Source of the DNA: Oligoflexales bacterium
Lineage (GTDB): Bacteria; Bdellovibrionota_B; Oligoflexia; Oligoflexales; JAPPIL01
Assembly: GCA_965215515.1 (NCBI GenBank)
Contig: OZ244057.1
Coordinates: 512,001 to 576,000, forward strand
DNA: 64,000 nt
Reading direction: 5' to 3'
Shown here: piece after piece, positions 1-52,670 of the stretch
Layout of the letters: each line of letters opens with the position of its first letter
Position numbering within the stretch: position 1 is the first letter of the stretch
Translations under genes and position numbers: made by a program
The notes under the pieces: model-generated
Told to the model about the DNA's origin: nothing
Seen by the model: only the letters and a program-made list of their open reading frames with translations
Databases searched by the model: none

Positions 1-2
1 AG

Positions 3-848
3 TCTTACAACGAACTGCTGTTGCGTGTGCTCACTATCTATCGTGAACAGCCTGCGCAGCGTGCTGCGTTGACTGTCCTGCTGGAGGACGTGGCAGAGAA
101 AGCCGAGTTGCACGACAGTTATTACGACTCGGTGGTGCTTGCGACGCTGGAGGGCAGTTTTATCGGGGCGGGGTTGCTGATGGTGACGCGTATGGGGGCA
201 AAGTTAATGCATCTGCTCGGTGCAGATGTCAGCAAACCGCGTTTTCGCTGGATTGCTGCATTGCTGGGGACAGGTGGGGCGATAGACACCGCAGAGGGTA
301 TACGCCTTTCGACCAGACAGCATTGGACACAACTCGGCAAGGTGGCGTTGGTGGGTGCTGCGGCGGGTTATGCTTATTATTTTGCGCAAAAGCTACGCAC
401 GCACAAACTGCCCCCCGAGGCTGTGTTGTTCGAGGTGCAGAAGGAGATTACACTCGACCTCGCCTATCGTGCCTGCGTTTTGGCGCACGAGGTCGACGAT
501 AGGGTTAGGGATAAGGACGAGCTACAGACCTACAGTGCCGAGCAGATACAGCAGGAACGTGAGGCGTTATCGGCTTTGGCCGCGCGGGTGAAGAAGATCG
601 GCCAGCAGGCTCAGCACCTGAGCGAGAGTGCTCCGAGCTTGCGTGGCAACCATCGGGTATCTTTACCGCACGCTTATCGGAACACTGACAATGGCCAGTG
701 TTCCCCCCAGGTAGCGACTGAGGGGCAAACTGTCGTCAGTATTACACCGCTGGTACAGGACATTGCCCACATCGCTGAGCAACTACAAGCGTGGAAGCGG
801 GCGATGGATGTTATTGAATATCGCCGTTTAACGCAACGAGGTAGCTGA
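3..848 (+). CDS. Hypothetical membrane protein, 5'-truncated by the window edge
   Basis: Frame is open from position 3; hydrophobic stretches (GSFIGAGLLMV, IAALLGTGG, VALVGAAAGYAYYF) and a coiled-coil-like C-terminal half; no recognisable family motif. Confidence 0.6.
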   Translation, partial: SYNELLLRVLTIYREQPAQRAALTVLLEDVAEKAELHDSYYDSVVLATLEGSFIGAGLLMVTRMGAKLMHLLGADVSKPRFRWIAALLGTGGAIDTAEGIRLSTRQHWTQLGKVALVGAAAGYAYYFAQKLRTHKLPPEAVLFEVQKEITLDLAYRACVLAHEVDDRVRDKDELQTYSAEQIQQEREALSALAARVKKIGQQAQHLSESAPSLRGNHRVSLPHAYRNTDNGQCSPQVATEGQTVVSITPLVQDIAHIAEQLQAWKRAMDVIEYRRLTQRGS

Positions 849-964: not shown

Positions 965-2884
965 ATGAGGTTTTTAGCGGTCGTGTTGGGATGCGCACTG
1001 TGGCATGGCGATGTGGTGCGCGCCAAGGGGCGGGGAGCGACGGGTTTAGCTCGGCGTGTTATCGGCATCGACTTGGGTACAACCAATTCGGCCATGGCCT
1101 GGGTGGACAAGAATGGTGCGCTGACTATCATTCGCAACCTTGAAGGTAGTAACATAACACCGAGTGTGGTTGACCTCGCTGAGGGAGGGGGTGTCGGTGA
1201 GTCTGCGTTAGAGTCGTTGGGGTTCTCGCCAGGGAGCGTAATTTTCTCGGTCAAGCGCCTTATGGGGCTTAGCTACGCTGAGTTGCAGGAGAGCAACCTC
1301 GCTGGAAACCTTCCCTACCAGGTCGCAGCGGGTGAAGGTGGAGTGGCCATCATAGAGGTTGACGGCCAGCAGTATTTGCCGCAGGAGGTTGCGGCGCGGG
1401 TCTTAGCGAAGCTCAAAGCAGATGCCGAAAGCGTGCTCGGCGAGGATATAAGTGAGGTGGTGATTACCGTCCCAGCTCGTTTTGATAATCGCCAAAAGCT
1501 TGCCACCAAGGAGGCGGGCGAGATCGCAGGCTTGCGTGTGCTCAGGCTGGTGGCCGAACCGACCGCCGCTGCTCTGGCGCACGGTCTCGGCAAGGGCGGG
1601 GAGAACCTTGTCGTTGTCTTCGATTTGGGAGGCGGCACGTTTGATGTCTCCGTTCTCGACATGGGGTATGCGGGTGAGGGAGAGGAGATGAGCGAAGTAC
1701 TCACCACCGAAGGTAACCCATTGCTGGGTGGCGATGACTTCGACAACAGGATTGTGCAACATCTGCTCGCTAAGTTGGAAAATAAACACGGGGTGGATGC
1801 AGTAGCCGAGTTGCGCAGTGACCAAGAGGCGATGGCTGAGTTAAAAATGGCGGCAGTCAAGGCAAAAGAGGCACTTACGGGCGGCAGAAGAGCGAATATC
1901 AGGATTAGAAATTTGGGGGAACAGTCGCTTACTGTCAGCGAGACTCTTACCCGTGTGGAGTTCGAAGGATTAATCGGTGATCTCGTTGCACAGACTATTG
2001 CCATGACCGAGAAGGCCTTGGCTAATGTCGAGATGGTTGCCGCGGATATCGACAAGGTGCTGATGGTCGGTGGTTCGACTCGTGTGCCCGCGGTCAGCGA
2101 GGCGGTGGAAGCACTGTTTGGCGTTGACAAGATAATCCGTGAGGACAATCCCGATGAAGTTGTGGCACTGGGTGCTGCGGCACTAGGGGGCGTGTTGGAG
2201 GGAAGTATCGAGGGTGTAACGCTGCTTGACACCACTTCCATGGATCTTGGTATCGGAGTGTTGGGAGGTAGATTCGAGGCAATCGTTGCGAAGGATACCA
2301 CCATCCCCACCGAAGCCCAGAAAACCTTTACTACCGCGAAAAATAACCAAACGTCGGTGACAATCCCTGTCTATCAGGGCGATGCCGAGCTGGTTGAGCA
2401 CAACGAGAAGATCGGTGAGTTTACTCTTGAGGGTATTCCACCTGCACCGCGTGGGATTCCGCAATTAGATGTGATCTTTGAAATAGATGCCAACAGTCTG
2501 CTTAAGGTCACCGCTAGGGATAAGGGCACAGGGAAGGAGAAGGAGATTACCGTAGCCGCCAATGCTATCGGTGAGGAGAGGATCGCGCAGATGCGCAAGA
2601 ATCTGGAAGAAAACAGCGAGAGGATCGAGGCTAAATTGAAATTGCTGGACGCCAGGGACAAGCTCAACAGCCTTTTGGCGCAGGCGGAAGGGGTGTTGAA
2701 TCAGGGAGGCACCGCAGCCAAATTACCGTTAGAGGCGAAGAACTCTTTAGAGCAGGCTATCGCCGCGGCCGAAAGCGCTGTCAACAGTAAGGATGTCGCG
2801 GCTATCGAGAAAGTCATCGCGGGTTTTGAGGCGCAGATCCACGCCGTGACTACTGAGCTCTACAGCCAGGGGGAACAGGGGTAG
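965..2884 (+). CDS. dnaK: Divergent Hsp70/DnaK-family chaperone with N-terminal signal-peptide-like extension
   Basis: Hsp70 motifs IGIDLGTTNS, VFDLGGGTFDVS, LGGDDFD, LMVGGSTRVP, NPDEVVALGAA, GIPPAPRG; AGGAG at 955-959 before ATG 965; leader MRFLAVVLGCALWHGDVVRA. Probably a paralogue, not the housekeeping copy. Confidence 0.93.
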   Translation: MRFLAVVLGCALWHGDVVRAKGRGATGLARRVIGIDLGTTNSAMAWVDKNGALTIIRNLEGSNITPSVVDLAEGGGVGESALESLGFSPGSVIFSVKRLMGLSYAELQESNLAGNLPYQVAAGEGGVAIIEVDGQQYLPQEVAARVLAKLKADAESVLGEDISEVVITVPARFDNRQKLATKEAGEIAGLRVLRLVAEPTAAALAHGLGKGGENLVVVFDLGGGTFDVSVLDMGYAGEGEEMSEVLTTEGNPLLGGDDFDNRIVQHLLAKLENKHGVDAVAELRSDQEAMAELKMAAVKAKEALTGGRRANIRIRNLGEQSLTVSETLTRVEFEGLIGDLVAQTIAMTEKALANVEMVAADIDKVLMVGGSTRVPAVSEAVEALFGVDKIIREDNPDEVVALGAAALGGVLEGSIEGVTLLDTTSMDLGIGVLGGRFEAIVAKDTTIPTEAQKTFTTAKNNQTSVTIPVYQGDAELVEHNEKIGEFTLEGIPPAPRGIPQLDVIFEIDANSLLKVTARDKGTGKEKEITVAANAIGEERIAQMRKNLEENSERIEAKLKLLDARDKLNSLLAQAEGVLNQGGTAAKLPLEAKNSLEQAIAAAESAVNSKDVAAIEKVIAGFEAQIHAVTTELYSQGEQG

Positions 2885-19732: not shown

Positions 19733-19749
19733 CACCAGCCGCCTCGCCC

Positions 19750-20529
19750 GTGTTCAACCTTGACACTACCACCTTCCCTGCACTGCAAGACCACATGCTC
19801 GACGCACGCATCGTCGTGCCCGCCGCCCTCGCTTTGACGCGCTTGCGCAGCTACGCCGAAAGCGTTACCGCCTGTGCCCAACGACATCTAACAGCCTTTC
19901 AGGTGTTGCACGGTGTGACCTTCCCCTCCACCGCGACGGTGCAACTAACCCTGCGCAGCCAACAAAGCACCCCTGACACCTGCCGCGTCGGTCTGTACCA
20001 CAACCAGCGTGCCTGCTACCGCGCCCTGGCCATGCACAACACCACCCCGCCGTTACCGAGTAGTCGCTTGCCGCCGCAGTTACACCTGCACGATAGCGAC
20101 CTCAGCACCGTCTACCGCGAAATTTTATTTCACGGCCCGCGCTGGCAGCTGCTCACCGCCATCTCCGCACCGCATGCGCAGACGAGCAGTGCTGCATTCG
20201 TTATTCCCGCCACGCTGGAACGTGAAACCGCCATGATCGATGCCGCTCTGCAGTTAGCCATCGTCCACATTCACCGTCGCTACCGAAAAACCTTCAGTTT
20301 GCCCGCAGCCATCGGCAGTTACCGTCTCTTCAACCCCGCACCGCCATCCCAGGGCACTCTTACCGTGCGTGTCACCGCACGCCACAACGCCCACGTGCTG
20401 CTCGATGCCGATATTACCCACCATACCCGCTTGCTTGCCCGTCTCGATGCCATCGAGATGATTCAAGGACGACGGCGGGGTGTGTCACCTACTGTGCAGG
20501 AACAATGCGCCACCACCACACCCAAGTAG
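19750..20529 (+). CDS. PKS-type dehydratase (PS-DH) domain; the -1-frame continuation of the KS-ACP gene
   Basis: LQDHMLDARIVVP (HxxxGxxxxP-like), LFHGPRWQ, IDAALQL, SLP; frame is open back through the A10 tract at 19719-19728. Confidence 0.8.
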   Translation: MFNLDTTTFPALQDHMLDARIVVPAALALTRLRSYAESVTACAQRHLTAFQVLHGVTFPSTATVQLTLRSQQSTPDTCRVGLYHNQRACYRALAMHNTTPPLPSSRLPPQLHLHDSDLSTVYREILFHGPRWQLLTAISAPHAQTSSAAFVIPATLERETAMIDAALQLAIVHIHRRYRKTFSLPAAIGSYRLFNPAPPSQGTLTVRVTARHNAHVLLDADITHHTRLLARLDAIEMIQGRRRGVSPTVQEQCATTTPK

Positions 20530-23500
20530 CTGTCGTCGGAATGGGCGGGATCTTCCCTGCCTGCCGCAATCTTGACGATTTCTGGCAACTGTTGCAAGAT
20601 AGACGCACTACCGCACGCCCCCTCCCCCCTAACCGCAGCGGGAAACCACGCGCACAGCTGCATCATCCCCATCACCCCGCCCCCGATAAATTTATTTCAC
20701 CCTACGCTTGTTTGCTCGACGATAGCTTGCTAGCCAACACCCATGTACCAGAAAAATTCGGACGTGATCCCCTCGTTACCTTGACCCTCGCCGCCACCCA
20801 GCAGGCGCTCGACGATACCCGCTCGTGGCCACACAAAATCGACCGCCACACCACTAACGTCATCATCGGCCACGTCCTACTACCGACCGAACACAGTTCC
20901 AAACTCAGCGAACAATTCTATTTTCCTGACAAATACGTCCACAATCCGATCGATCCGTGTAACCGCTACGCAGCCGACTTACCCGCCATCGCTATTCAGC
21001 AACACTTCGCACTGCACGGTGACCGTTTTTGTCTCGATGCCGCCTGTGCTTCAACCTTGTACGCATTGAAGTTAGCCATGGACGACCTACTGGCCGTGCG
21101 TGCCTCGACCGTCATTTGCGGCGGCGTGTTGCGCGCTGACGGGCTCTACCCCCAGATGGGTTTTACCCAACTGCAAGCTCTCTCGCCACGCGGTCGTTGT
21201 CTGCCCTTTACGGCCGAAGCCGACGGGCTGCTTGTCGGCGAAGGTGCGGGTATCTTCGTGCTCAAACGCCTGCACGATGCCTTGGCTGAAGGCGATCGCA
21301 TACACGGCATCATCCGTGCCGTCGGGTTGAGCAACGATGTGCAGGGCAATATTCTCGCCCCCGACCGCCACGGCCAATTGCAGGCCATGCACAATGCCTA
21401 CCGTATAGGAGGAGTGTCCCCGTCTGAGATAGATTACATCGAATGTCATGCCACAGGTGCACCTCGTGGCGATACGGTGGAAATTGCTAGCCTGGCTGAA
21501 CTTTTCTGTTCCGAGCGCCGCGCAAAAGATGACCGTGCTCACATCCTCGGCACGGTCAAGGGCAATATCGGCCATCTCCTCACCGCCGCGGGGGCTGCGG
21601 GGTTGGCTAAAATTCTGCTCTCTCTACACCACAACTCCGTTCCTCCCAACATCGGTGCCCATAACCCTGCCTCCCAGCTCGTGGGCACACCCTTCATTTT
21701 CAGCGACCGCGCCCAACGCTGGGAGAGCGCAAAAAATAAACCGCGCTGTGCCGCACTCAGCGGATTCGGATTCGGTGGCATCAACGCTCATCTTATCGTG
21801 GAAGAATATCGCGACGAGCAGCGGCAACCCTCGCGGGCAAAGGCACAGTCCCTGACATCGCACCGCCTCGTGCGAGATACCTCTATCGCTGTTATCGGGA
21901 TCGCCGCACATTGCGGCGCGCTCACCGATGTAGCACAGCTGCAGGCAGAAATTTTTGCACCCCCCCCAATTACCGCATCCAAGCATATCGCTGCTAGTCA
22001 TGCTCCTCTCACCCGTTACCGTCTGCCACCCGCACAGATACAAGAAATGCTGCCGCAACAGCTGCTGATGCTCAACACCGCCTGTGCTGCTGCGGACATG
22101 GTGGGCAAAAACAAACTACCCGCGAGCACGGGCATCTATATCGGTCTCGGTCTCGATTGCCATACAGGGCATTTCTTCGTGCGTTGGCAACAGGGCGACG
22201 TGCGGTGGCCACCCTTGACTTATGGACGCACTCTCGGTGCGTTGGGGAGCATCGTTGCCAGCCGTATCGCTCGTGTGCTGGCTTGTAATGCCCCCGCTTT
22301 TACGGTGTCCAGCGATGCTAGCAGCGGCCTCAAGGCCTGCGCACTGGCCTGCGCCGCCTTGCACGCCCGAGAAATTACTACTGCCATCGTCGGTGCGGTT
22401 GACTTCGCTTGCCATCCTCTCAATATCTACGCCCGAGGTCCTAATCCGCATGGCTATGGTGATGCGGCTTGTGCCCTCGTACTCAAGCCTTTACCTGCTG
22501 CTCAGCGCGACCACGATCGGGTACTGGCTATCATCAGCACTACTGCTGACCACAAGTTCCGCACTATCGGCACAACTGACAGCATTGTCCGTCACCGCGG
22601 CGACTGTGGTTATGCGCATGGTTTACTCGAACTCACTTACGGCATTATGTGTGCGGCACGAGGCGAACATGTTCAGGTTAGGGTTCGAGATCGTGACGGC
22701 TATACGCGCCTTGTTCATTTACGACCACCGCCGCAACCGACGACCTTGCCGACATCGATCTCGGCAAAAAACACGGCACAGATTACCTTGACGACACCGA
22801 CTCTGACCGTCGCTGAGCGCACTAGCTACAGTTACCAACAGTGTTTGACCTTCGCCCGCGGCCGTGCTGCCGCGGTGCTGGGCGAGAAGTTCGCCGCCTA
22901 CGATCGTTACCCTGTGCGTGTCCGTCTGCCAGACGAGCCGCTGCTACTTTGTCACCGCATTTTGCATTGCGACGGGCAAGAACAGGCGAACGACATCGCG
23001 GCCGCCCGTGGTTATGTGCAAACGGCTCATGATGTGCGTGACGACGCGTGGTATCTCGATCACCATCACATTCCTTTGAGTATTGCGGTCGAAGCGGGTC
23101 AGGCGGATTTGTTTCTTTGTTCGCAGCTCGGTATTGATTTTCTCAATCGAGGTCAAGCTGTCTACCGTCTGCTCGATGCCGAGATTACCTGTGCCCAGCC
23201 TTTGCCATCGCCTCCTGCAACCATCATCTATGATATCAACATCGACCGTTTCTTTAAGTATGGCACGAGTTGGTTTTTTAATTTCCGTTTCACTGCCAAA
23301 GTCGATGGCGAGTTGCTTTTGGAGATGGCAAACGGCTGTGCGGGTTTTTTCACCGCCGCGCAGCTCGCCGCAGGTCGTGGTATTCCTAGGCTCGAGCGCA
23401 GGCAGCAAGCCCCCCCGCGGTTGTCCCCGACTGCCGCTTGGCCCTTGACTTGGTCGGGCAACGAGACCTACGACGCATCACAGCTTGCATTCTTGCGGGC

Positions 23501-25073
23501 GGGGCAGCTGGGAAAATGTTTCGGCAGTTCTTGCGAGGCTTTCAACAAAATCAGCAATCCCTGTCGTTTACCGCACGGACGCATGCAGCTTATCGACCGT
23601 ATTACTGCTTTGCAAGCCGAGGGGGGTGACTATGGCAATGGTCTTGTTGTCAGCGAACACGACATCGTGTCTGAGGCTTGGTATCTCACCTGTCACTTCG
23701 TCGATGATCGTGTCATGCCAGGCACATTGATGTATGAGTGTGCACTACAGACGTTGCGTGTCTACACCATGCGACGCGGTTGGGTCTGCGAGGCAGGGGA
23801 CTATCGTAGTGATGCTGTCGCGGGTGTTAAGACGACTCTCAAGTGTCGCGGTCAAGTTACTGACAGGCACAAAACGTTGCGTTGTGCTGTTCATCTCAAA
23901 ACCAGCGGCGGTAGTCCTGCGCCTTTCTGTATTGCCGATGCCTATCTTTATGTCGATGGCATGTGTGCTGTCAGTTTCACCGACATGTCGTTACAGCTTA
24001 CTGATTTCCCTCTGTCTTCTCGTGCCACCGCCGAAGTTTTTTGTCGTAACGAGCAAATTCTACAGTTTGCGGAGGGCGATCCTACCCGCTGTTTTGGGGA
24101 GCGTTATGCGGTGTTCAGGCACAAACGCAAGGTGGCGCGGTTACCGCGTCCGCCTTACAAGTTTCTCGATCGTATCGTCACCGCTAGTCCGCAACCTGCT
24201 GAGTTTACTGCCGATGCTAGCTGTACGGCTGAGTATGATTTGTCTCCTGAGCTCGCTTACCTCACGGCTCAGGGACAGCTACCGTTTTGTCTGTTGCTGG
24301 AAATAGGTTTGCAGCCTTGTGGTTGGCTAGCCGCCTATATCGGTTGTGCGTTGCAGTCGGAACAAGATCTGTCCTTCCGCAATCTCGATGGGCGAGGCAC
24401 GCAACATCAGTTTGTCTCTCGTGGTGCGGGCACGCTTACTACCGAGGTTCGCCTGACTAGGCTGGTACAGGCGATGGGTATGATTCTCTGTAATTTCTCC
24501 TTAGCTGTCAGTGCTGCCGCACAAAAAGTTTACACTGCCACTACGGGTTTCGGTTTTTTTACGCCTGCGGCTCTCGCGGCGCAGACGGGAATCGGGGGGG
24601 TGCGGCTTAGCCAGTTACCGCCACAAAAAAAGTTTCCTTATCCTCTTGATTTGGTGGATAATGGGCTAAGGATGATAGACACGCTTGATTTTTTCGACCC
24701 GTGCGGGGGGGTGCGGCGGCTGGGTTTGGTGCGAGGGCATAAGCTTGTCGATGCGCGAGCTTGGTTTTTTCGGGCGCATTTTTATCAAGATCCAGTTGTG
24801 CCTGGTTCGCTGGGGCTTGAGTCGTTGTTGCAGTTGTATGTGTTGTTGGCGCGGGAGCATTGGGGCACGAGCAGCGTGATGGCTTTGGGGTATCCGCATC
24901 TCTGGAGTTACCGTGGCCAGGTTGTGCCTACTCAGACGTGCATGACGACACAACTCGAAGTTACTGCCGTTGACCAGCAACGCCGTATCATGCGAGGTGA
25001 TGGTCTGTTTGCGGTTGATGGTTTGGTTATCTACCGCATGACTGATTTTGCCGTTGAGGCGGCTGATGCTTGA
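20505..25073 (+). CDS. PfaC-like subunit: KS, reduced chain-length factor and FabA-type DH domains
   Basis: KS DAACASTL, ECHATG, GNIGHLLTAAG, GFGFGGINAH; second KS-like domain lacks the catalytic Cys; hotdog motifs EAGQADLFL, CHFVDDRVMPGTLMYE, LEIGLQPCG, AHFYQDPVVPGSLGLE. Confidence 0.9.
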   Translation: MRHHHTQVAVVGMGGIFPACRNLDDFWQLLQDRRTTARPLPPNRSGKPRAQLHHPHHPAPDKFISPYACLLDDSLLANTHVPEKFGRDPLVTLTLAATQQALDDTRSWPHKIDRHTTNVIIGHVLLPTEHSSKLSEQFYFPDKYVHNPIDPCNRYAADLPAIAIQQHFALHGDRFCLDAACASTLYALKLAMDDLLAVRASTVICGGVLRADGLYPQMGFTQLQALSPRGRCLPFTAEADGLLVGEGAGIFVLKRLHDALAEGDRIHGIIRAVGLSNDVQGNILAPDRHGQLQAMHNAYRIGGVSPSEIDYIECHATGAPRGDTVEIASLAELFCSERRAKDDRAHILGTVKGNIGHLLTAAGAAGLAKILLSLHHNSVPPNIGAHNPASQLVGTPFIFSDRAQRWESAKNKPRCAALSGFGFGGINAHLIVEEYRDEQRQPSRAKAQSLTSHRLVRDTSIAVIGIAAHCGALTDVAQLQAEIFAPPPITASKHIAASHAPLTRYRLPPAQIQEMLPQQLLMLNTACAAADMVGKNKLPASTGIYIGLGLDCHTGHFFVRWQQGDVRWPPLTYGRTLGALGSIVASRIARVLACNAPAFTVSSDASSGLKACALACAALHAREITTAIVGAVDFACHPLNIYARGPNPHGYGDAACALVLKPLPAAQRDHDRVLAIISTTADHKFRTIGTTDSIVRHRGDCGYAHGLLELTYGIMCAARGEHVQVRVRDRDGYTRLVHLRPPPQPTTLPTSISAKNTAQITLTTPTLTVAERTSYSYQQCLTFARGRAAAVLGEKFAAYDRYPVRVRLPDEPLLLCHRILHCDGQEQANDIAAARGYVQTAHDVRDDAWYLDHHHIPLSIAVEAGQADLFLCSQLGIDFLNRGQAVYRLLDAEITCAQPLPSPPATIIYDINIDRFFKYGTSWFFNFRFTAKVDGELLLEMANGCAGFFTAAQLAAGRGIPRLERRQQAPPRLSPTAAWPLTWSGNETYDASQLAFLRAGQLGKCFGSSCEAFNKISNPCRLPHGRMQLIDRITALQAEGGDYGNGLVVSEHDIVSEAWYLTCHFVDDRVMPGTLMYECALQTLRVYTMRRGWVCEAGDYRSDAVAGVKTTLKCRGQVTDRHKTLRCAVHLKTSGGSPAPFCIADAYLYVDGMCAVSFTDMSLQLTDFPLSSRATAEVFCRNEQILQFAEGDPTRCFGERYAVFRHKRKVARLPRPPYKFLDRIVTASPQPAEFTADASCTAEYDLSPELAYLTAQGQLPFCLLLEIGLQPCGWLAAYIGCALQSEQDLSFRNLDGRGTQHQFVSRGAGTLTTEVRLTRLVQAMGMILCNFSLAVSAAAQKVYTATTGFGFFTPAALAAQTGIGGVRLSQLPPQKKFPYPLDLVDNGLRMIDTLDFFDPCGGVRRLGLVRGHKLVDARAWFFRAHFYQDPVVPGSLGLESLLQLYVLLAREHWGTSSVMALGYPHLWSYRGQVVPTQTCMTTQLEVTAVDQQRRIMRGDGLFAVDGLVIYRMTDFAVEAADA

Positions 25074-27288
25074 TGCAAGTGTCAGCGAGTGGTGGGGAAA
25101 GTTAAAAAGTTTCGCTGCCGAGGATGATGACGACCTCAGTCGGTTGTTAGTTTGGGTTGTGCTTGCCGCAATCTTTTTCATCTACTGGTATGTTGGGCTG
25201 CGGTATTTCATTTTTGCGGGCGCGGCTTATGGCGCGGACAACTCCTCTCATCTTGCCGAGATAATAAAAGTTGCCGCGGCGATGCGTGAAGGGCGCTTCG
25301 ATGCTTTTTGGTTTTCGCAAGTAAATCTCGGTTATCCTCTTTTTCAGAACTACAATGTGTTGCCTTATCTTTTGATGGGGGCGTTGGTTGCGGTGACGCA
25401 GACTTTTTGGCAACCGATGCATGTCTATAACACTTCTGTAATTTTTTTGCATGCGCTTGTCCCTTTGTGTTGGTATGTCAGTGCCCGTCTGATGCGTTTG
25501 CCGCGCTTGATCTCGCTGTGTTTTGCGCTGTTCTCCGTGTTCATGAGGGAGTACACGATGTTTGGGCCTCATGCAGGTACGACGATGGGGATGGGGCTTT
25601 ACACCCAGCTGTGGGCGTTACCGTTGTTGCCGTCGGTGCTTGCCTGCTACTATCGTTTTTTGGTGTTAGCGACACGCGATGGTATGCTAGCCACTATTGT
25701 TATGCACAGTCTACTGTGTTCCATCCATAATCTGTTTGGTTTTTTCGCGGGTATCGGTGGGTTATGGTTTTTTATTTTGTGTCGTAAAGGCTGGAGGAGG
25801 TATCTTTGCAGTCAAGTGGTTATTATTTCGCTATTTTCTTATTGGATTGTGGCATGGTTCGGTAACAGTATTTATCTGATAAAGATTCATCTCATCGATC
25901 ATCCTATTTACAGTGATGGTTTTGTCCTTACCGTCAAGTACTTGGTCGAGGGTTATTTATTTGATGATGAGCGTTCGTTTCCTTTGCTTACTTTACTGGT
26001 GGGCGTAGGTATGTTGGTAACTTTGCGCACGCAGACGGTGTTGCGTGCGTGGGCGGTGTATTTTTTTCTTTGCGGCATTGCTATGTGGTTGTATGCGCCA
26101 GGTGATAGTTTGCTTGCTCGTGTCATTCCTTTTTTTCAAGAAATACCTTATCGTCGTTATGCTACTATCATACAGGTAGGTGGGGCGTTGCTCGGTGCGT
26201 GGGGGGCGGGTTATTTGTTGTCGAAGGCTGCGCGTGTGTTTTCTCTTGTGCTTAATATTTCTGCTACGACGATTATGCGTGATTTGGCGGTCATTACGGC
26301 TGTTTTGTTATCTGTGCAACATCTTAATTTAGCGCGTCAGACATTTCGCAGTATGTTTATCGATGTAGATTTTGTTGCCGCGGCGAAATTTTTGCAACGC
26401 GAGCCGCACGCTCGTTTCCTTGTCCATGATAAATTCGGGACGGGCAGTCATTTTTTTAGAAACCTCATGCCGTTGCTTGCCGATCGTGCGCAACTTACCA
26501 CTTATGCTCGTGGTATTCGTGATTCGTTATCGTCTTATTACACCACGAGGTTTGATTTTGCGCCTTTATCTGCCGAACTGTTCAATGTGCGTTATCTGAT
26601 CAGTAACGGCAGACAGATACCGCTTTACCTGCGGGATGGTTTTGCTTTACGCCAGCAGTTTGGGCGTATCCGTGTTTATGTTGTTGATCGTGCTTATGGT
26701 TATTTTGATGTGGTGCAGAGTACTTTTGCCGTCGCTGCTTATACTAGTGAGACGGCGGTAGAATACCTTCGTCGTTACACACGGCGTTTTTATCGTCACG
26801 GGGTATTGCCGCGTTTGGTGCACGAGCCGCCTGAGGATATGCCTTATGTTAGTTTTGAGGGGGGCGAGTCGCGTTATTATTTGCAGGCTGGCGGTGTTGC
26901 GGTTGAGGGCAAGCGGTTCATGGCTGAGCTGCTCAAAAAAGGTATGCCGCGTTATCCTGGTCAGCGTATTCAGGAGAAGGTCAGCGATCATGTTTATCGG
27001 GCGACGTTGAGTCTTGACACATCTGCGTATTTGTTGCTCAAGGTTTCTTATCATCATGGCTGGCATGCGACTGTCAATGGCGAGTCGACTACTGTGTATG
27101 CTGTTGCTCCTAATCTGATGGCGGTGTCGTTGCCTGCGGGGCAGCATACGGTTGTTTTTAGTTACCGCGCTGATTTACTCCCGCGGGTGTTGTTTTTGCT
27201 GTGTGTGTTAGCCTGGTTGGTCTTGTTGGGGTGGTTGTTGTTTATGTTGCGGCGTGGTGTTGGTGTTAGGTTGGGTAGAGACAACTAG
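25066..27288 (+). CDS. Polytopic membrane protein, PTPS-related/YfhO-like (GT-C-fold glycosyltransferase candidate)
   Basis: DNSSHL, WFSQVNLGYPLFQNY, many TM helices, YfhO-type tail LLKVSYHHGWHATVNG...LMAVSLPAGQHTVVFSY; ATG 25066 overlaps the pfaC-like stop. Confidence 0.75.
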   Translation: MLDASVSEWWGKLKSFAAEDDDDLSRLLVWVVLAAIFFIYWYVGLRYFIFAGAAYGADNSSHLAEIIKVAAAMREGRFDAFWFSQVNLGYPLFQNYNVLPYLLMGALVAVTQTFWQPMHVYNTSVIFLHALVPLCWYVSARLMRLPRLISLCFALFSVFMREYTMFGPHAGTTMGMGLYTQLWALPLLPSVLACYYRFLVLATRDGMLATIVMHSLLCSIHNLFGFFAGIGGLWFFILCRKGWRRYLCSQVVIISLFSYWIVAWFGNSIYLIKIHLIDHPIYSDGFVLTVKYLVEGYLFDDERSFPLLTLLVGVGMLVTLRTQTVLRAWAVYFFLCGIAMWLYAPGDSLLARVIPFFQEIPYRRYATIIQVGGALLGAWGAGYLLSKAARVFSLVLNISATTIMRDLAVITAVLLSVQHLNLARQTFRSMFIDVDFVAAAKFLQREPHARFLVHDKFGTGSHFFRNLMPLLADRAQLTTYARGIRDSLSSYYTTRFDFAPLSAELFNVRYLISNGRQIPLYLRDGFALRQQFGRIRVYVVDRAYGYFDVVQSTFAVAAYTSETAVEYLRRYTRRFYRHGVLPRLVHEPPEDMPYVSFEGGESRYYLQAGGVAVEGKRFMAELLKKGMPRYPGQRIQEKVSDHVYRATLSLDTSAYLLLKVSYHHGWHATVNGESTTVYAVAPNLMAVSLPAGQHTVVFSYRADLLPRVLFLLCVLAWLVLLGWLLFMLRRGVGVRLGRDN

Positions 27289-42146: not shown

Positions 42147-43739
42147 ATGAACATGAACATTGCCGACCTGCTCAATACACACGCCGCACAGCACCCCTCT
42201 CGTATCTGCTTGTTGCGCGCCCACGGCAAAAACTGGCAACAGCTCAACTACATACAGCTGGCACGGCGTGTCGCCCAAACCGCCCACCGTCTCCAGACAT
42301 TGGGAGTGCAAGCAGGAGCCAAAACCCTACTGGCGTTACCACCAACCCTGGATTTTTTTGTGCTGGTCTACGCCCTGTTCAAAATCGGCGCAGTGCCCGT
42401 CTTCATCGACCCACGTATGGGGCGCGCGAATTTACGCCGCTGTCTGCACCAGGTACAACTCGACTTGCTCATCGCCTCCGCAGCAGTGCGTCTGTGGCTG
42501 CGCGTCATCGCCGCCCTCCGCAGCACACACACCCTCAACCCCTCCACCTGCTTGCGTCCCACCACCGCCTCCTCCACCCCCAGCTGGCAGGCAAGGAAGA
42601 GAAGCATCGCCGCCATAACTTTCACGAGCGGCAGCACAGGCACACCGAAAGGCGTGCTTTATACGCATCATATCCTCGCCGCCCAACTCGCCGCTTTACG
42701 CGACATGTTTGCTATCAAAGGCGACAGCTACGACCTCGCCACCTTCCCGCTCTTCGCCCTCTTCGGCCCGCTGCTGGGTCGCACAACGGTACTCGCCGCG
42801 ATGGACATGACTCGCCCTGCCCGCGTCAAACCCACACGGTTAATTACCGCCATCAACCGCTACCACATCGCCTCGATGTTCTGCTCGCCTGCCGTGCTCG
42901 ATAAACTCGCCACCTACGGCAGACAACACGGGATCAGCCTGCCATCCCTGCGCCAGATAATTTGCGCGGGCGCACCCGTCAATCCTCGCATCTTGCACAC
43001 CGTCGCCCCGCTGTTAGCAGTAGACACCGAGATCTTCACCCCCTACGGGGCGACCGAAGCCCTACCCGTGGCACTCATCGGCAGTCGGACGATTATGCGT
43101 ACCACCGCCCCCGCGACAGCACGCGGTGCAGGCATCTGTATCGGCAAACCCCTCGCCACAGTCGATGTCAGGATAATTAAAATTTATGACGGTGCATTGC
43201 CGTACGATAAAGATTTCCACACCGCCCCAGGGGACATAGGCGAGATCACCGTCAGTGCTCCGTGGCTGTCACACTCTTATCACGAGAACACCGCCGCCGA
43301 TAACGAAGCAAGATACACCCACGGAGGTAAAATCTACCATCGCATGGGTGATCTCGGCTACTACGACAAGGAAGGGCAACTGTGGTACTGCGGACGCAAA
43401 TCACAGCGTGTGCGCTGCAGTGCGGGCACGCTGTATACCGTATGCTGTGAGGGAATTTTCAACGCCCACACCGCGGTAAAATGCAGCGCACTGATCGCCA
43501 TCAAAGTGCAAGGACAACGACAGGCTGGTGTGTGCGTAGAAACTCTGCACAAACTAGCAGCGCAGCAACGGCAAAAGCTACGGCGAGAATTACAACAACT
43601 AGCACGGAAATTCAAAACTACTGCCGCGATCACGCATTTTTACTTCTTAAAAAAATTGCCCGTCGATAGACGACACAACGCCAAAATTTTGCGAGAACAA
43701 CTGACACACAAGATAGGTAAACGTCTTGTCTCCCCCTAA
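42147..43739 (+). CDS. oleC: OleC-like AMP-dependent ligase (beta-lactone synthetase family)
   Basis: GAVPVFIDPRMG, FTSGSTGTPKGV, DLATFPLFALF, MDMTRPA, TPYGATEALPV, HRMGDLG, GRKSQRV, LPVDRRHNAKI; adjacent to an oleD-like gene. Confidence 0.85.
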   Translation: MNMNIADLLNTHAAQHPSRICLLRAHGKNWQQLNYIQLARRVAQTAHRLQTLGVQAGAKTLLALPPTLDFFVLVYALFKIGAVPVFIDPRMGRANLRRCLHQVQLDLLIASAAVRLWLRVIAALRSTHTLNPSTCLRPTTASSTPSWQARKRSIAAITFTSGSTGTPKGVLYTHHILAAQLAALRDMFAIKGDSYDLATFPLFALFGPLLGRTTVLAAMDMTRPARVKPTRLITAINRYHIASMFCSPAVLDKLATYGRQHGISLPSLRQIICAGAPVNPRILHTVAPLLAVDTEIFTPYGATEALPVALIGSRTIMRTTAPATARGAGICIGKPLATVDVRIIKIYDGALPYDKDFHTAPGDIGEITVSAPWLSHSYHENTAADNEARYTHGGKIYHRMGDLGYYDKEGQLWYCGRKSQRVRCSAGTLYTVCCEGIFNAHTAVKCSALIAIKVQGQRQAGVCVETLHKLAAQQRQKLRRELQQLARKFKTTAAITHFYFLKKLPVDRRHNAKILREQLTHKIGKRLVSP

Positions 43740-44733
43740 CTCCATGCATGCCCTCGTAACAGGAGGGGGCGGGTTTCTCGGTCTAGAACTGGTCAAACAA
43801 TTGTTGGCCGCGGGTTATCGAGTACGTTCGTTTGCACGCCAACATCATGCCGTTCTCGACCGACTCGGTGTCGCTAGTGTGCGCGGCGACCTCACCCATG
43901 CCGAGGCCGTACAACGCGCCGTACAAGGGGTCGATATTGTCTTTCACGTTGCGGCACGCGCAGGAGTGTGGGGCAAACGACAGCTGTACTACGACACCAA
44001 CGTCATCGGCACACAACATGTCGTGGCGGCTTGCTTGCGACACAAAACGAAATACCTTATCTATACGGGCAGTCCGAGCGTTACCTTCGACGGGCGAGCA
44101 CAGGAAGGTGTTAACGAGGACACGCCCTACACACAAAAATTTTTCTGTGCCTACCAAGAGACAAAAACCATCGCGGAACGTTATGCTCTACAAAATCGTT
44201 GTCCCGACCTCTACACGGTGGCCTTGCGTCCACATCTGATCTGGGGGGTAGGTGATCCGCATTTTTTGCCGCGCTTGCTGGCACACAGTAAACGTCTGCG
44301 TTTTATCGGCGAAGGCACAAACCTTATCGACACGACTTACGTCAGCGATGCTGCCGCGGCACACGTGTGCGCCGCGCAAGCTCTGCGCCACAATCATGCC
44401 CTCAGTGGACGCAGTTATTTTATCAGCGGCGGAGAACCGCAGCGCGTGTCCGTCTTTCTCAACGCCCTGCTCACCGCATGCGGACGGCCTGCGCGGCACA
44501 AAAAAATTCCGCGGCGCATCGGCTTGTGTCTCGGCACACTGTGCGAAACGATCTTTCGTGCACTAGGTAGTCAGCGTGAACCGCCGCTGACGTATTTTGT
44601 CGCGGCACAGCTGGCGAAGGCACACTGGTATGACATCAGCAGAGCAAAACAAGAGCTGGGTTACAACCCCCAAGTATCGTTGACACAGGGTTGTGCCTGG
44701 CTGCGAGAAGAGCACAGACGGGCGAAGTATTGA
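43726..44733 (+). CDS. oleD: OleD-like NAD(P)-dependent 2-alkyl-3-oxoalkanoate reductase (3-beta-HSD family)
   Basis: VTGGGGFLG, FHVAARAGVWG, SPSVTFDG, YQETK (YxxxK), LRPHLIWGVGDPH. Confidence 0.85.
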   Translation: MSPPNSMHALVTGGGGFLGLELVKQLLAAGYRVRSFARQHHAVLDRLGVASVRGDLTHAEAVQRAVQGVDIVFHVAARAGVWGKRQLYYDTNVIGTQHVVAACLRHKTKYLIYTGSPSVTFDGRAQEGVNEDTPYTQKFFCAYQETKTIAERYALQNRCPDLYTVALRPHLIWGVGDPHFLPRLLAHSKRLRFIGEGTNLIDTTYVSDAAAAHVCAAQALRHNHALSGRSYFISGGEPQRVSVFLNALLTACGRPARHKKIPRRIGLCLGTLCETIFRALGSQREPPLTYFVAAQLAKAHWYDISRAKQELGYNPQVSLTQGCAWLREEHRRAKY

Positions 44734-47886: not shown

Positions 47887-48040
47887 TGATAAGTAAGCAC
47901 CACCGTTAGGCTAACACGAGCAGCACATCACCCTCCATCCCGCGTGTCAGCAAACAAAAGCTTGCATTTCTGTCTTAGCTGTGTTACGCGCCGCAGCGAT
48001 ACTTGCTGCAGGAAATTTGTTTTTGTTACTGGAGGGATCG

Positions 48041-51016
48041 ATGCAGTTTCTAATTGTGTTGGCAGTGCTGACTGTGAGCAGTACGGCTCTGTGCCGCAAC
48101 GTGCAGTTGCCTAGAGGCGTGGCGGGCAAGGTGCATCTGTTGCATCGTCTGATTATGGCGGGGGAGCAGACGGAGCTGGTACGTTTGCTGTCGCAGCTGC
48201 AACGACATGTCAACGACGGTGACCATGAAGGGCATACGCCGCTGCACTGGGCTGTCTATGCAGACGACCTCGACAGCGCAAAATCTCTGCTGAAGTACAA
48301 AGCTGATCCCAATATCGCGGATAAATACGGGCGCACAGCGCTACACGAGGCAGCACGGGTGGGCAGCAACGAGATGCTCAACCTCCTGATAGACAGTGGC
48401 GGTGATCCTGAAGCACCTGACGAACAGTACGGCTGGGATGCCCTCTTCTGGGCGGCGTACTCGGGCACTAAGGAGTCGCTGCAAACGTTGATAGAGCGGG
48501 TCGGTTCGCAGCACGAGAAGACGGGTGAGAAGACGGGTGGTGCCGACATTTACGCTGTCGTCTTGCAACAAGACGATCCCAGTAAAATGTCGGGCGAGGA
48601 CAACGACAAGATAGCCAAGGTGGAGCTGTTGCTGGCTGCGGGGGTTGTGCCCGACATCGGCGTGGCGATGATGCTAGTCCCGTTGGAAAAGATGACATCG
48701 CTAGCTGCAGTGTTCAATGCTCACGCGGGTGAGGTAGAGTTCAACACTTCTAATATCAATGGCATAGATCCAAGGAACTGGAAGACCTTGCTGATGAAGG
48801 CGATGGCGGCAGGAAGTGTTCCCGCCGCGGAGTTTTTGCTCCGTCAGGGGGCGGACCCCCATGCGGTCGACGGGAAAGGCCGTCATGTCCTCATCTCCGA
48901 CTACCAGAAGGGCGCACAGCTGGAGATAGCGAAGCTCTTGCTCGAACATGGGGTCGAAGTGCAGAACGCAGGTGTCGAGGCAGCCTTCTACGCAGCTCTG
49001 AGGCACGATGACGTGGAACTAGCAGAATTGCTGTTGGCGAAGGTGACAGAAGATGGCGAAAACCCCGTGCCCGATGCATGGGTCATTTTTCGCGGCGTAC
49101 CTAACGTGGGCTTAGCACCCGCGATACAGTTAGCGAAGAGTGAGGAGATGCAGGAGCTGTTGCTGCTGTACGGTCTGGGCGAGCAAGACAGACTGAATGC
49201 GATCGTGCGCACCCTCGAACAGAGAGTTAAACAAAAACAGGGCGGTAGCGTTACACGAGAAACGGCGCGCTCCGTGCCTGATTTTCTGATAGACTTCAAC
49301 GCCCTCGCCGCGGCGGGCAAGTTTAAGCCCGTCATCGGCCGCGAACGGGAAATACAACAGGTGATCACGGCGCTGGCCCGCAAGGAGAAAAACAACCCGC
49401 TGCTGGTCGGGGAGGCTGGTGTCGGCAAGACCGCCATCGTCGAAGGCCTGACGCAGCGTATCGTCGCGGGAGACGTGCCCCCTATCATGCGCGACAAGAC
49501 CGTCTACGCCCTAGACATGGGTTTATTGCTCGCCGACAACATGCATCGCGGTCAGCTCGAAGCTGTCATCACCGAAGAGCTGTTACCTTTCATCGCCGAA
49601 AACGAGAGTAATGCCATTCTTTTCGTCGATGAGATCCATCAGCTCATCAGTTCAGCGGCGGCACGGGGGATCGCGGACTTGTTGAAACCTGCCCTGGCGC
49701 GGGGGGACATACACTGCATCGGTGCGACGACGCAGGACGATTATCAGCAACACATTATGCTGGACAGTGCGTTAGAGAGACGTTTCTTCCCTGTCACCGT
49801 CGCCGAGCCGTCGGTCGCAGACACGATCGCTATCGTCAGCGGCTTGAAGAGGGTGTATGAACAGCACCACGGCATTACCATCAGCGACAGTGCCGTACAG
49901 GGTGCGGTAAAACTTGCTGACCAGTATATCACTAACCGCTACCATCCCGACAAAGCCATCGATCTGATCGACATGGCGGCGGCAAAAGTCGTGGTCAATG
50001 AAGGCAAAGATCTGCAATTTTTACAGGTAGCTGAAGTCGTCGCCGACGTGACGGGCGTGGCGGTGGAACGCATCTTGATCCGTCCCCAGGATAAGGTTGA
50101 CCGACTGTTGCCTTTTATGCAGCGACGTATCTTTGGACAGGACGAGGGATTGGAAGAAATCGCCAGATACCTTTCCCCTTTTCTCATGGGGGTCGGCGAT
50201 CAGGACAGACCTGCGTCGCTGTTGCTGCTGGGGCCGACTGGAGTTGGCAAGACAGAAACGGCAAAGGTGCTGGCGGAACATTTTTTCGGAGCAGATGACA
50301 ACCTGATCAACATCAACCTCAGCGAATACCGCGAGAGACACGATGTCGCGAGTCTGATCGGTGCTCCCTCAGGTTACATCGGCTACGAACAAGGTGGTAT
50401 TCTGACCGAAGCCGTGCGCCGTAAACCCTTCTCGGTGGTGTTGTTCGATGAAATAGGCGAGGCACACCCAGATTTTGCTGGCATTCTGTTAAAAATTCTC
50501 GATGAGGGTGAGCTTACCGACAAGAGAGGACGTACGACCAATTTTAGAAACACCATTATCGTCATCACAGGCAACACCGAGACCAGCAAAAGCCGTGGCA
50601 GTGTCGGTTTCAAAGCGGGGACGGAACAGGCATCCCCCAGTGGCGTGAGTGCGAGCCAAGTCCCGATACAGGCCAAATTGCAAGGGCGTTTAGGAAAAAT
50701 TATCACCTACGCTTCCTTGCCAGCAGAAGTGATGGGGAGACTGATCAGCAAAGAACTCGCCCGTTTCAATGCCCAACTGGCACAAAAAAACATCTCTATA
50801 TCGCTCACCGCTACCTTGCGTAAACATTTGCGTGAACGGGGTTATAAACCTGAACTGGGAGCGAGGTCACTGCAAAACATGCTTGTGGAGTTGGTGGAAA
50901 GTCCGCTGTCAGCTAAGCTTGCCACCGGTGAATTGCAAGAAAATCGCCACTACCGTATCGGCATCAGAAACGGCAAGATAACGATTAAGGAACAACCCGC
51001 AACACGTCAAAAATAA
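48041..51016 (+). CDS. Signal peptide, ankyrin repeats and two-NBD Clp/Hsp100 AAA+ ATPase (ClpA-like)
   Basis: GGAGGG RBS; leader MQFLIVLAVLTVSSTALC; ankyrin motifs GHTPLHWAV, GRTALHEAA, KTLLMKA...LLRQGADP; NBD1 GEAGVGKT/LFVDEIH/ALERRF; NBD2 GPTGVGKT/GYIGY/VLFDEI/GARSL. Confidence 0.9.
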   Translation: MQFLIVLAVLTVSSTALCRNVQLPRGVAGKVHLLHRLIMAGEQTELVRLLSQLQRHVNDGDHEGHTPLHWAVYADDLDSAKSLLKYKADPNIADKYGRTALHEAARVGSNEMLNLLIDSGGDPEAPDEQYGWDALFWAAYSGTKESLQTLIERVGSQHEKTGEKTGGADIYAVVLQQDDPSKMSGEDNDKIAKVELLLAAGVVPDIGVAMMLVPLEKMTSLAAVFNAHAGEVEFNTSNINGIDPRNWKTLLMKAMAAGSVPAAEFLLRQGADPHAVDGKGRHVLISDYQKGAQLEIAKLLLEHGVEVQNAGVEAAFYAALRHDDVELAELLLAKVTEDGENPVPDAWVIFRGVPNVGLAPAIQLAKSEEMQELLLLYGLGEQDRLNAIVRTLEQRVKQKQGGSVTRETARSVPDFLIDFNALAAAGKFKPVIGREREIQQVITALARKEKNNPLLVGEAGVGKTAIVEGLTQRIVAGDVPPIMRDKTVYALDMGLLLADNMHRGQLEAVITEELLPFIAENESNAILFVDEIHQLISSAAARGIADLLKPALARGDIHCIGATTQDDYQQHIMLDSALERRFFPVTVAEPSVADTIAIVSGLKRVYEQHHGITISDSAVQGAVKLADQYITNRYHPDKAIDLIDMAAAKVVVNEGKDLQFLQVAEVVADVTGVAVERILIRPQDKVDRLLPFMQRRIFGQDEGLEEIARYLSPFLMGVGDQDRPASLLLLGPTGVGKTETAKVLAEHFFGADDNLININLSEYRERHDVASLIGAPSGYIGYEQGGILTEAVRRKPFSVVLFDEIGEAHPDFAGILLKILDEGELTDKRGRTTNFRNTIIVITGNTETSKSRGSVGFKAGTEQASPSGVSASQVPIQAKLQGRLGKIITYASLPAEVMGRLISKELARFNAQLAQKNISISLTATLRKHLRERGYKPELGARSLQNMLVELVESPLSAKLATGELQENRHYRIGIRNGKITIKEQPATRQK

Positions 51017-51062: not shown

Positions 51063-52670
51063 TTGTGGGTGCAAACGATGTGGTTTGCTCTTTGGACAGG
51101 AGGCTTTCTCGCTGGCTGGTTGCTGGCTAGGGTCGGGCAGTTTGACTTCTTGTCGTGGTCATGGTTGGCCTTTTTGCTGGCGTTGCTGCTGTTGCCGCGG
51201 GCGCGCCATGCCTGGCTGTGGGCGGCTGTCGGTCTTTGTTTCGGCAGTTACCACAGTGCACCCTTCCCCAGCCAACCCCTCGCAGCTGTGCGCAGTGTAC
51301 AGCATAATCCCTTGCAATTTTTTTACAGCCCCACCATCGCCACCACCAGCACCCAGGCACGCTGGCAGGTAAGGAGCTATCCACACAGTCAGGGTAGCGT
51401 GCCTGAAAGCGCAGGGAAACAACCCCACTTCATCTTCCCCCGCCCGCCACATTTGCGTGCGGAGCTAGCAAGCGGCGAACAAGCCAGGCGGAGCGCAGCG
51501 GAGCTAACAAGCGGCGAACAAGCCAGGCGGAGCGCAGCGGAGCTAGCAAGCGGCGAACAAGCCAGGCGGAGCGCAGCGGAGCTAACAAGCGGCGAACAAG
51601 CCAGGCGGAGCGCAGCGGAGCTAACAAGCGGCGAACAAGCCAGGCGGAGCGCAGCGGAGCTAACAAGCGGCGAACAAGCCAGGCGGAGCGCAGCGGAGCT
51701 AGCAAGCGGCGAACAAGCCAGGCGTGCCTCGCCTCCACCGCTCGTGCACACGATGCGCCGCTATCTTTTGCGCCAAGCTGACAACCTATGCGAGCCAGTA
51801 CACAGCTGGATTGTCAGCATCACGCTGGGCAAACGCAAGGACATGCCACACCCCTGGCGGGAGGCGTTTCGTCTGCTCGGTTTGTTTCACGTTCTGGTAA
51901 TCAGCGGGTTGCACATCACCATCATCGCGATGGGAGGTAAAAAACTGCTCGACCTTACCCTGCGTTCCCTCTACGTCGTGCGTCTGTTGACTCCTAACAG
52001 TTGGCTGCTGCTGACCAAACTGGCCAGTCTGTTGAGTTGCCTGCTGATTCTGTTTTACGGTTGTCTGGTCGGTTTCTCCGCCCCCGCACAACGTGCAGTG
52101 CTGTTGTTCCTCGCCCACCAAGGTTGTGCCCTAGGGGAACATCACGTTTCCCTGACGGAGAAGATCAAGCTGGTGTTCTTCTTGCAGATGTTGCTTTTTC
52201 CCATCGGGTTCTTATCCGACTCGTTGCTGCTCAGCTGGGGGGCTTACCTCATCGTGCTGCACTGTTTTCGAGAAGTGAAGCATGCACAGTCGTGTGGCGG
52301 CAAGCTTGCCGCCACGCTGCGTTCCCAGTTGCTCATCACGGCTCTTATTCTGTGTTTTTTCAGGGAGTTGAGTGTCTTGTCGATTCCGCTCAACATCTTG
52401 CTACTGCCTTTCATCCCCTATCTGGTGATGAGCGGGTTTCTGTTGCTGTTGTTGCCTGCGAGTACACCTCTCGCGGGGTGGATCGAGTACTCGCACCTGT
52501 TCTTTCTGCAACAAATTGCCCGTCTCGCTGAAATAGCCTCTACTTACAGCTGGTTAATCATCGACCTGCACGATAGCCCTCCTCTGCGGGTCGGTCTGTT
52601 CGTCATTTTGATCCTTATGGTCTTAAGGAGAAGCATGTTTGTGACGAAAAGGGATGCGGGGCGAAGTTAG
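51063..52670 (+). CDS. comEC: ComEC/Rec2-family competence protein (no metallo-beta-lactamase domain) with internal tandem repeat
   Basis: GLFHVLVISGLHI, SAPAQRA, LSIPLNILLLP; multiple TM helices. Confidence 0.85.
   Translation: MWVQTMWFALWTGGFLAGWLLARVGQFDFLSWSWLAFLLALLLLPRARHAWLWAAVGLCFGSYHSAPFPSQPLAAVRSVQHNPLQFFYSPTIATTSTQARWQVRSYPHSQGSVPESAGKQPHFIFPRPPHLRAELASGEQARRSAAELTSGEQARRSAAELASGEQARRSAAELTSGEQARRSAAELTSGEQARRSAAELTSGEQARRSAAELASGEQARRASPPPLVHTMRRYLLRQADNLCEPVHSWIVSITLGKRKDMPHPWREAFRLLGLFHVLVISGLHITIIAMGGKKLLDLTLRSLYVVRLLTPNSWLLLTKLASLLSCLLILFYGCLVGFSAPAQRAVLLFLAHQGCALGEHHVSLTEKIKLVFFLQMLLFPIGFLSDSLLLSWGAYLIVLHCFREVKHAQSCGGKLAATLRSQLLITALILCFFRELSVLSIPLNILLLPFIPYLVMSGFLLLLLPASTPLAGWIEYSHLFFLQQIARLAEIASTYSWLIIDLHDSPPLRVGLFVILILMVLRRSMFVTKRDAGRS
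51459..51724 (+). repeat. About 6.8 x 39-bp tandem repeat encoding AEL(A/T)SGEQARRSA
   Basis: Unit GCGGAGCTA[G/A]CAAGCGGCGAACAAGCCAGGCGGAGCGCA at 51459, 51498, 51537, 51576, 51615, 51654, 51693; one variable position. Confidence 0.95.

Follow-up and report, generated by a model that had tools for sequence, protein, structure and literature searches.

By the textbook account, the bacterial periplasm is without ATP and hence without Hsp70, Hsp100 and Clp protease. The nearest functional precedent for an Hsp100 acting outside its producer is Plasmodium HSP101, which enters the secretory pathway via a signal peptide. As described in PMC7282954, HSP101 (ClpB2, of PTEX) unfolds cargo in the parasitophorous vacuole, outside the producing cell. 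Skd3 (human CLPB, ANKCLP) is described as a holozoan fusion with a single nucleotide-binding domain (NBD) in PMC4339202, and as a disaggregase of the mitochondrial intermembrane space, acting outside the usual compartment of Clp ATPases, in PMC7343390. Bacterial ClpA has two AAA+ rings, no M-domain and an IGF/IGL-type loop (E. coli structures, e.g. 1ksf and 6w1z). Here, a gene at positions 48041..51016 (+) of a 64,000-nucleotide stretch (hereafter the window) of an Oligoflexales bacterium (GenBank assembly GCA_965215515.1, contig OZ244057.1, positions 512,001 to 576,000) was analysed. Its 991-amino-acid (aa) product, P0001, combines a hydrophobic leader, ankyrin repeats and two Clp-type AAA+ modules.

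Overall, P0001 is best explained as an exported ClpA-like unfoldase in a leader-bearing ATP-dependent proteostasis set, an explanation that we regard as moderately probable from comparative sequence evidence. In one narrow lineage, four kinds of ATP-dependent machine (Hsp70, two types of Hsp100, and ClpP) have each gained a signal-peptide-like leader with the catalytic motifs retained. If these leaders work, these bacteria either have an extracytoplasmic space supplied with ATP or send entire machines for unfolding and degradation out to a host or prey, and either would be new biology. P0001 would also be an independent bacterial example of the ankyrin and Clp design known from human Skd3. No description of a periplasmic Hsp70, DnaK, AAA+ protein or ClpP was found in a full-text literature search. 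Likewise, no earlier description of P0001-like proteins was found in a literature search that covered titles and abstract openings, together with passages of PMC7313196.

Coding sequence, domains and motor motifs

The frame that ends with the stop codon at 51016 is already open from an upstream in-frame GTG at 47981. Translation from this GTG was rejected, since the starts of orthologues and homologues point to ATG 48041. In the two orthologues of the same genus that were checked (sister genomes G001 and G002), no in-frame start was found upstream of the equivalent methionine, and 12 of the 13 database homologues start at this methionine or at most one residue away, the exception being P0005, which was called short. 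The strong ribosome-binding site noticed in the preliminary description of this DNA is a Shine-Dalgarno-like GGAGGG at 48031..48036 (+), with the GGAGG core stopping 5 nt ahead of the ATG.

Pfam matches to P0001 comprised Ank families at residues 54-155 and 248-341, AAA at 454-581, AAA_lid_9 at 591-658, AAA_2 at 725-885 and ClpB_D2-small at 893-973. No Pfam match to Clp_N (PF02861, the double Clp-N repeat) was obtained, and ankyrin repeats stand in its place. The ankyrin/helical-repeat N-domain covers residues 30-395 (about 365 aa; 48128..49225, +) and was predicted as a helical solenoid, with a predicted local distance difference test score (pLDDT) of mostly 75-94, in an AlphaFold2 (AF2) model built on the alignment of the 14-sequence family (mean pLDDT 76). 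The segments of low confidence were residues 1-29, 396-410, the NBD2 pore loop at 775-785 and the loop at 847-873 that holds a VGF tripeptide, with pLDDT below 50 for 1-29 and 847-873. The N-domain is followed by NBD1 with its lid at residues 411-655 (49271..50005, +; Walker A at 49409-49432, Walker B (DE) at 49628-49633) and by NBD2 with D2-small at residues 690-985 (50108..50995, +; Walker A at 50231-50254, Walker B at 50447-50452). With both lids (AAA_lid_9 and ClpB_D2-small) in place, P0001 has, as predicted from its domains, the two-ring architecture of class I Hsp100/Clp proteins.

Motifs were compared by aligning the 14 family members with the ClpA and ClpC-like proteins of the same genome (G000). 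Walker A and B, sensor-1, sensor-2 and the arginine fingers form invariant columns in all 14 members and in both modules. The NBD1 pore-loop tyrosine position of P0001 is occupied by His502 (codon at 49544..49546, +), with DNMHRG aligned to SRYRG of the genome's own ClpA; the 14 members have Y (three), F (four), L (three), A (two), I (one) or H (one) here, and 13 of them lack the GAG loop that follows. Tyr779 in the NBD2 pore loop GAPSGYIGY (residues 774-782; 50360..50386, +) is invariant. The VGF tripeptide, which spans residues 855-857 (50603..50611, +) and is part of a flexible loop, falls in the alignment column of the IGF of the genome's own ClpA, a column that reads [IVL]G[FY] in 13/14 members and ISF in P0013. 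Taken together, the pore-loop and [IVL]G[FY] columns suggest a pulling role for NBD2, a mainly structural one for NBD1, and the present or former use of a ClpP-type partner. A complex prediction for NBD2 of P0001 (residues 690-991) with two copies of the genome's own ClpP1 gave scores of 0.16 and 0.13 against a mark of 0.32, and returned 'no answer'. As a separate observation, the housekeeping ClpC-like ATPase of this genome (L112, G000:C1:2045505-2047973) also has no NBD1 pore tyrosine (GAKVQGEFEE), and carries VGI at the ClpP-loop position.

An M-domain is absent from P0001, as judged by a linker between NBD1 and NBD2 of the same length as in the genome's own ClpA, and by the NCBIfam model for ClpB (TIGR03346) matching in two stretches (585.6 bits, cut-off 1232.1) and that for ClpA (TIGR02639) in a single one (399-970; 554.3 bits, cut-off 993.15). 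Since neither cut-off was reached, P0001 is a member of neither family. Read from the letters alone, the intact Walker motifs of two AAA+ modules, the exchange of the N-domain for ankyrin repeats, the missing M-domain, the retained GYIGY, the His in the NBD1 pore and the VGF at the IGF/IGL site had all been set out in the preliminary description, and each was recovered here.

Its label of a ClpA-type protein held for the architecture and not for membership. P0001 shares with ClpA two AAA+ rings, the lack of an M-domain and an IGF/IGL-type loop in the same place, and its residues 412-975 are collinear with residues 169-735 of E. coli ClpA. Unlike P0001, ClpA has Clp_N, where P0001 has the leader and the ankyrin domain; the pore-1 tyrosine of ClpA is lost in P0001, and the GAG loop is lost in 13/14 of the family. 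Quick IQ-TREE trees were calculated for NBD1 and NBD2 separately from 54 author-chosen sequences, with branch support by the Shimodaira-Hasegawa-like approximate likelihood-ratio test (SH-aLRT). The target family and a second type of leader-bearing Hsp100, described below, formed one clade in both trees (SH-aLRT 99). In the NBD2 tree, ClpA and both leader-bearing types were split from ClpB and ClpC (SH-aLRT 98), which places the NBD2 of P0001 on the ClpA side, whereas in the NBD1 tree the target family stands apart from ClpA.

Skd3 is the nearest look-alike of P0001 in the protein atlas: in both, a targeting sequence is followed by an ankyrin domain and a Clp-type AAA+ part, with one NBD in Skd3 against two in P0001. 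The resemblance to Skd3 that had been proposed stands as one of architecture. Skd3 chains matched P0001 with 141-150 bits and in NBD2 only, lower than the 247 bits of an isolated ClpB NBD2, and the likeness is read as convergence and not as common descent. Descent from Skd3 was rejected on this weak similarity. HSP101, like P0001 a two-ring Hsp100, was present among the structure matches of P0001 (PDB 6e10 and 6e11, HSP101/PTEX); unlike P0001, it is a eukaryotic protein of ClpB type that has an N-domain and an M-domain, lacks ankyrin repeats and the ClpP loop, and is coupled to the EXP2 pore.

The leader and its counterparts on other proteostasis proteins

The family of P0001 consists of 14 protein clusters. 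A search of a collection of 5.8 billion proteins with P0001 returned 13 full-length homologues (39-65% identity), the further matches listed being ordinary Clp ATPases that were aligned in the AAA+ part only. In a search with residues 1-405, no other protein joining ankyrin repeats, AAA_2 and D2-small was present among the 120 matches listed. In a HMMER search with the 410-aa N-terminus, giant ankyrin proteins dominated, and of the 150 matches listed only P0010 gave a single stretch over 1-406. With the 400-aa N-terminus as the query, an orthologue was found in all four genomes of one Oligoflexia-like family, that is, in 3/3 besides G000, and in 0/37 genomes of the rest of the order, where generic ankyrin matches only were returned. 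A scan of genome contigs with generic Walker-A patterns missed the family altogether and returned 80 ordinary loci of the Clp family (ClpB-like); tblastn matches of the genome's own ClpC-like protein to them were all 39-46% identical and carried no taxonomic signal.

The leader of P0001 comprises residues 1-18, MQFLIVLAVLTVSSTALC (48041..48094, +), with a proposed signal peptidase I site at ALC/RN (here and below, a slash marks a proposed cut or a junction). The Sec-like leader pointed out beforehand is conserved in homologues: 13 of the 14 members, P0005 again being the exception, and the orthologue of sister genome G003 (...SSGGLQA/RQ) begin with a similar hydrophobic stretch, and such conservation is judged to be far above chance expectation. 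The hydrophobic core has 9-11 residues in the family; one of G, S, D, E and P is found at -5/-6 (Asp in P0003, Glu in P0006), A (11 members) or V (three) at -3, and C (11), G (two) or A (one) at -1. In the AF2 model of P0001, the helix of the leader extends over residues 3-11 only. In the shortness of the core, in a polar, helix-breaking c-region and in small -3/-1 residues, the leaders of the family conform to a predicted signal peptidase I site. A lipoprotein (signal peptidase II) signal was rejected, the residue before the Cys being L or W and not the G/A/S of a lipobox, and the Cys being replaced (G, G, A) in 3/14; a twin-arginine translocation (Tat) signal was rejected in the absence of the twin-arginine motif. 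A rule-based signal-peptide scan with charge statistics of the mature region flagged 410 of 1888 open reading frames (ORFs) and was too permissive to discriminate.

Similar putative leaders were found on an Hsp70, on a second Hsp100 type and on a ClpP, and it is this finding, new here, by which the leader of P0001 is not a one-off. The second type of leader-bearing Hsp100 was found in 2/121 genomes of the class. G002 has three such genes, two of them in tandem and with ankyrin repeats (L146:1580-4468 and 4681-7584, +) and the third, of 680 aa, without (L147:1517-3559, +; beginning MKFLLVVLLISVTAPVLA/RW), and G001 has one (L149), likewise without ankyrin repeats. Their leaders in G001 and G002 end in VLA/R and AQA/R. 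In this type, NBD1 retains an aromatic pore loop, K[WY]VG, and NBD2 has neither a GYVG loop nor an IGF-type loop.

A third ClpP, consisting of a canonical ClpP1 with a signal-peptide-like N-terminal extension of about 30 residues, is encoded in each of G002 (L166:1492-2181 = G002:C1:1221519-1222202, -) and G003 (L180:1498-2178 = G003:C197, +). The junctions read ...FKLSA/RPPNAALVPVVVE and ...MQVAA/RAPQSALVPVVVE in G002 and G003, respectively, without a Met at the canonical start. The Ser/His/Asp triad is intact, and the leader is the sole difference from canonical ClpP1. Among the 121 genomes of the class, ClpP matches that run through the leader without a stop codon were found in G002 and G003 only.

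A full-length Hsp70 paralogue with a leader is encoded in the same window (965..2884, +; starting MRFLAVVLGCALWHGDVVRA/KGRG). Its leader, which has a hydrophobic core of 10-11 residues and an Asp-containing c-region ending in ARA or VRA, is present in G000, G001 and G002, each of which also has a canonical DnaK (in G000 a separate gene at G000:C1:951731-953527). In G000, the Hsp70 gene closes a string of three genes, all with leader-bearing products. Directly upstream of it lies the gene of an 885-aa protein without a Pfam match (G000:C1:510191-512848, +; its 3' end is window 1..848), and further upstream that of a 1249-aa protein with a J-domain (HPD motif) at its end (G000:C1:506445-510194). 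Elsewhere in this genome, a 167-aa J-domain protein (G000:C1:1373337-1373840, L202:337-840) has a leader, MRFLIVLVVLSLSCGA/R, nearly identical to that of the P0001 family, and a second hydrophobic segment between the leader and the J-domain.

Proposed export and the explanations that compete with it

All four kinds of machine probably carry cleavable Sec signals. The short cores, polar or helix-breaking c-regions and small -3/-1 residues common to these leaders favour a cleaved Sec signal over an anchor. A membrane span would need a longer leader and a less polar c-region than those of the Hsp70, and an uncleaved leader on ClpP would occupy the axial face where the ATPase docks. We infer that the Sec-type signal peptide of P0001 would be cleaved after Cys18 as the protein crosses the inner membrane, and that the mature protein would assemble into a ClpA-like double-ring hexamer. 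The ankyrin domain atop the ring would pick clients, the tyrosine loop of NBD2 would pull the substrate, NBD1, with decayed pore loops, would mainly bind ATP and hold the ring together, and the flexible [IVL]G[FY] loop would dock a ClpP-type peptidase where one is available. P0001 would thereby be part of a lineage-specific leader-bearing set of Hsp70, two Hsp100 types and ClpP. Its working compartment could be the periplasm, with host ATP entering via porins, or else the outside or a host, reached for example via a type II secretion system. One of the three secretins of G000 is above the GspD cut-off (414 vs 351 bits), which means that an exit route exists. The export and the delivery to a ClpP that had been proposed earlier stand in part: export draws comparative support from the conserved leader and from the similar leaders on ClpP, Hsp70 and the second Hsp100 type, and the partner of P0001 may be a leader-bearing ClpP made by the bacterium itself instead of one from a host, though G000 has no such ClpP.

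A wider proposal is advanced tentatively, and as the less probable case: that the lineage runs a complete extracytoplasmic ATP-dependent network, in which Hsp70 and a membrane J-protein would be joined by ClpP and both Hsp100 types, either in a periplasm fed with host or prey ATP through porins or after release into a host. If true, this network would be a bacterial counterpart of the endoplasmic reticulum, of the intermembrane space of mitochondria and of PTEX in malaria parasites, and would break the textbook rule by which protein quality control driven by ATP is missing from the bacterial envelope.

Several observations weigh against export. We know of no ATP source outside the inner membrane, and a TLC-type nucleotide transporter was not found in G000, but the control genomes of the same search likewise gave none. 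The leader-bearing ClpP is not in G000 or G001, each of which has two ClpPs, both without a leader, and G000 consequently offers the VGF loop of P0001 no exported partner. The 1249-aa J-domain protein has about three internal hydrophobic segments, by which its J-domain may face the cytoplasm. The n-region of P0001 (MQ) has no K or R, likewise in 5/13 full N-termini of the family; the residue after the putative cut is R in eight members and K and H in one each; and the first 18 putative mature residues of P0001 have a net charge of +4, unlike the mature starts of the three secretins of this genome, which are acidic or neutral. Even so, a rough regular-expression screen of G000 returned 89 leader-like ORFs with R or K next, which suggests that a basic +1 residue is not unusual in this genome.

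The main rival explanation is a membrane-tethered cytoplasmic unfoldase, in which the leader would remain uncleaved as an N-out/C-in anchor and the ankyrin crown and the rings would lie on the cytoplasmic face and feed ClpP1/ClpP2. The models for it are FtsH and Msp1/ATAD1, in which, as in P0001, the AAA+ motor comes after a hydrophobic segment at the N-terminus, and which unlike P0001 belong to other AAA+ clades and have one ring and true transmembrane helices. Such a tether would account for the ATP supply, ATP and both ClpPs of G000 being cytoplasmic, for an IGF-type loop kept in a genome without leader-bearing ClpP, and for the basic flank, where R19, R25, K30 and R36 after the hydrophobic stretch, behind an uncharged n-region, fit the positive-inside rule and the C-terminal flank is net positive, by +1 to +4, throughout the family. 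It does not account for the shape of the leader. The stretch without charges does not exceed 16-18 residues, and is only about 11 in P0003 and P0006 with their Asp or Glu at -5; small -3/-1 residues would have no reason to persist; K or R is present in the n-region in 7/13 members with full N-termini and in the G003 orthologue; the matching leader of ClpP, if left attached, would block the docking face; and the Hsp70 leader has Asp in the c-region after a core of 10-11 residues. We consider the tether unlikely. It is very improbable that the leader has become vestigial in G000, with P0001 a soluble Clp ATPase of the cytoplasm and its hydrophobic N-terminus now devoid of any targeting role: the MQ n-region, the strongly basic early mature region and the loss of the other leader-bearing Clp components from this smallest genome of the family would agree with it, but the hydrophobic core and the c-region of P0001 are kept as well as in its relatives, and the leader-bearing Hsp70 is retained in G000.

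A special case of export, put forward in the preliminary description, is that P0001 would be a secreted effector that leaves the cell after Sec transport and acts within eukaryotic host cells or bacterial prey, in whose cytosol ankyrin-chosen targets would be unfolded by P0001 alone or on a foreign ClpP. The 67 ankyrin matches obtained in sister genome G002 with the P0001 N-domain as the query suggest an association with eukaryotes, the family genomes are small (1.9-3.1 Mb), and G000 has a GspD-type secretin, five VirB10/TrbI-family matches and no exported ClpP of its own. Against these stand the lack of any identified secretion signal beyond the Sec leader, the type III secretion/flagellar export gate (FHIPEP), which was not found in G000, and the absence of conserved neighbours tying the gene to a secretion system; two sister genomes have the leader-bearing ClpP, which speaks for a self-contained system and not for the hijacking of a foreign ClpP. 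This special case appears rather doubtful, and the preferred reading remains an exported ClpA-like unfoldase that belongs to the lineage's leader-bearing set.

Surroundings of the gene and further observations

A serine recombinase (resolvase) gene lies just upstream of the P0001 gene (47245..47886, +), and this adjacency is not kept at the orthologues. The 20-kb neighbourhoods of G000, G001 and G002 have only the P0001-family gene in common, and no conserved partner gene was found in them. A sigma-70-like promoter was not found at the P0001 gene, and the GC content near it is unremarkable. On its other side, a ComEC-like gene (51063-52670) contains a 39-nt tandem repeat at window 51459-51724 (6.8 copies, 98% matches); the 13-aa unit that it encodes, AEL[AT]SGEQARRSA, belongs to the N-terminal portion of a membrane protein of the Competence family.

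The genome G000 is a single contig of 2.18 Mb with 52.6% GC. Its RpoC shares 73% identity with proteins under the names Oligoflexus, Pseudobacteriovorax, Oligoflexales and Bdellovibrionota, which puts the organism within the class Oligoflexia or close to it. Besides P0001, its Clp set comprises ClpA, the ClpC-like protein and the two leaderless ClpPs. About 14 loci on this contig encode large proteins of 635-1185 aa with a common pilin-like N-terminus, MMVAVAVIGILVALALPRYHAFLAQARRGEAKSNL... (e.g. 240226-243342, 1038329-1041451 and 1915798-1919355), and at least four of them adjoin a gene for a lipoprotein-like protein that begins MM[QK]LLTILSFVLLTSC. In the window, PfaA-like polyunsaturated fatty acid (PUFA)/polyketide synthase genes, an OleC-like beta-lactone synthetase gene and a 3-beta-HSD-family gene are located at 17600-27288 and 42147-44733, and these genes together suggest the synthesis of long-chain olefins or PUFA lipids in this small genome.

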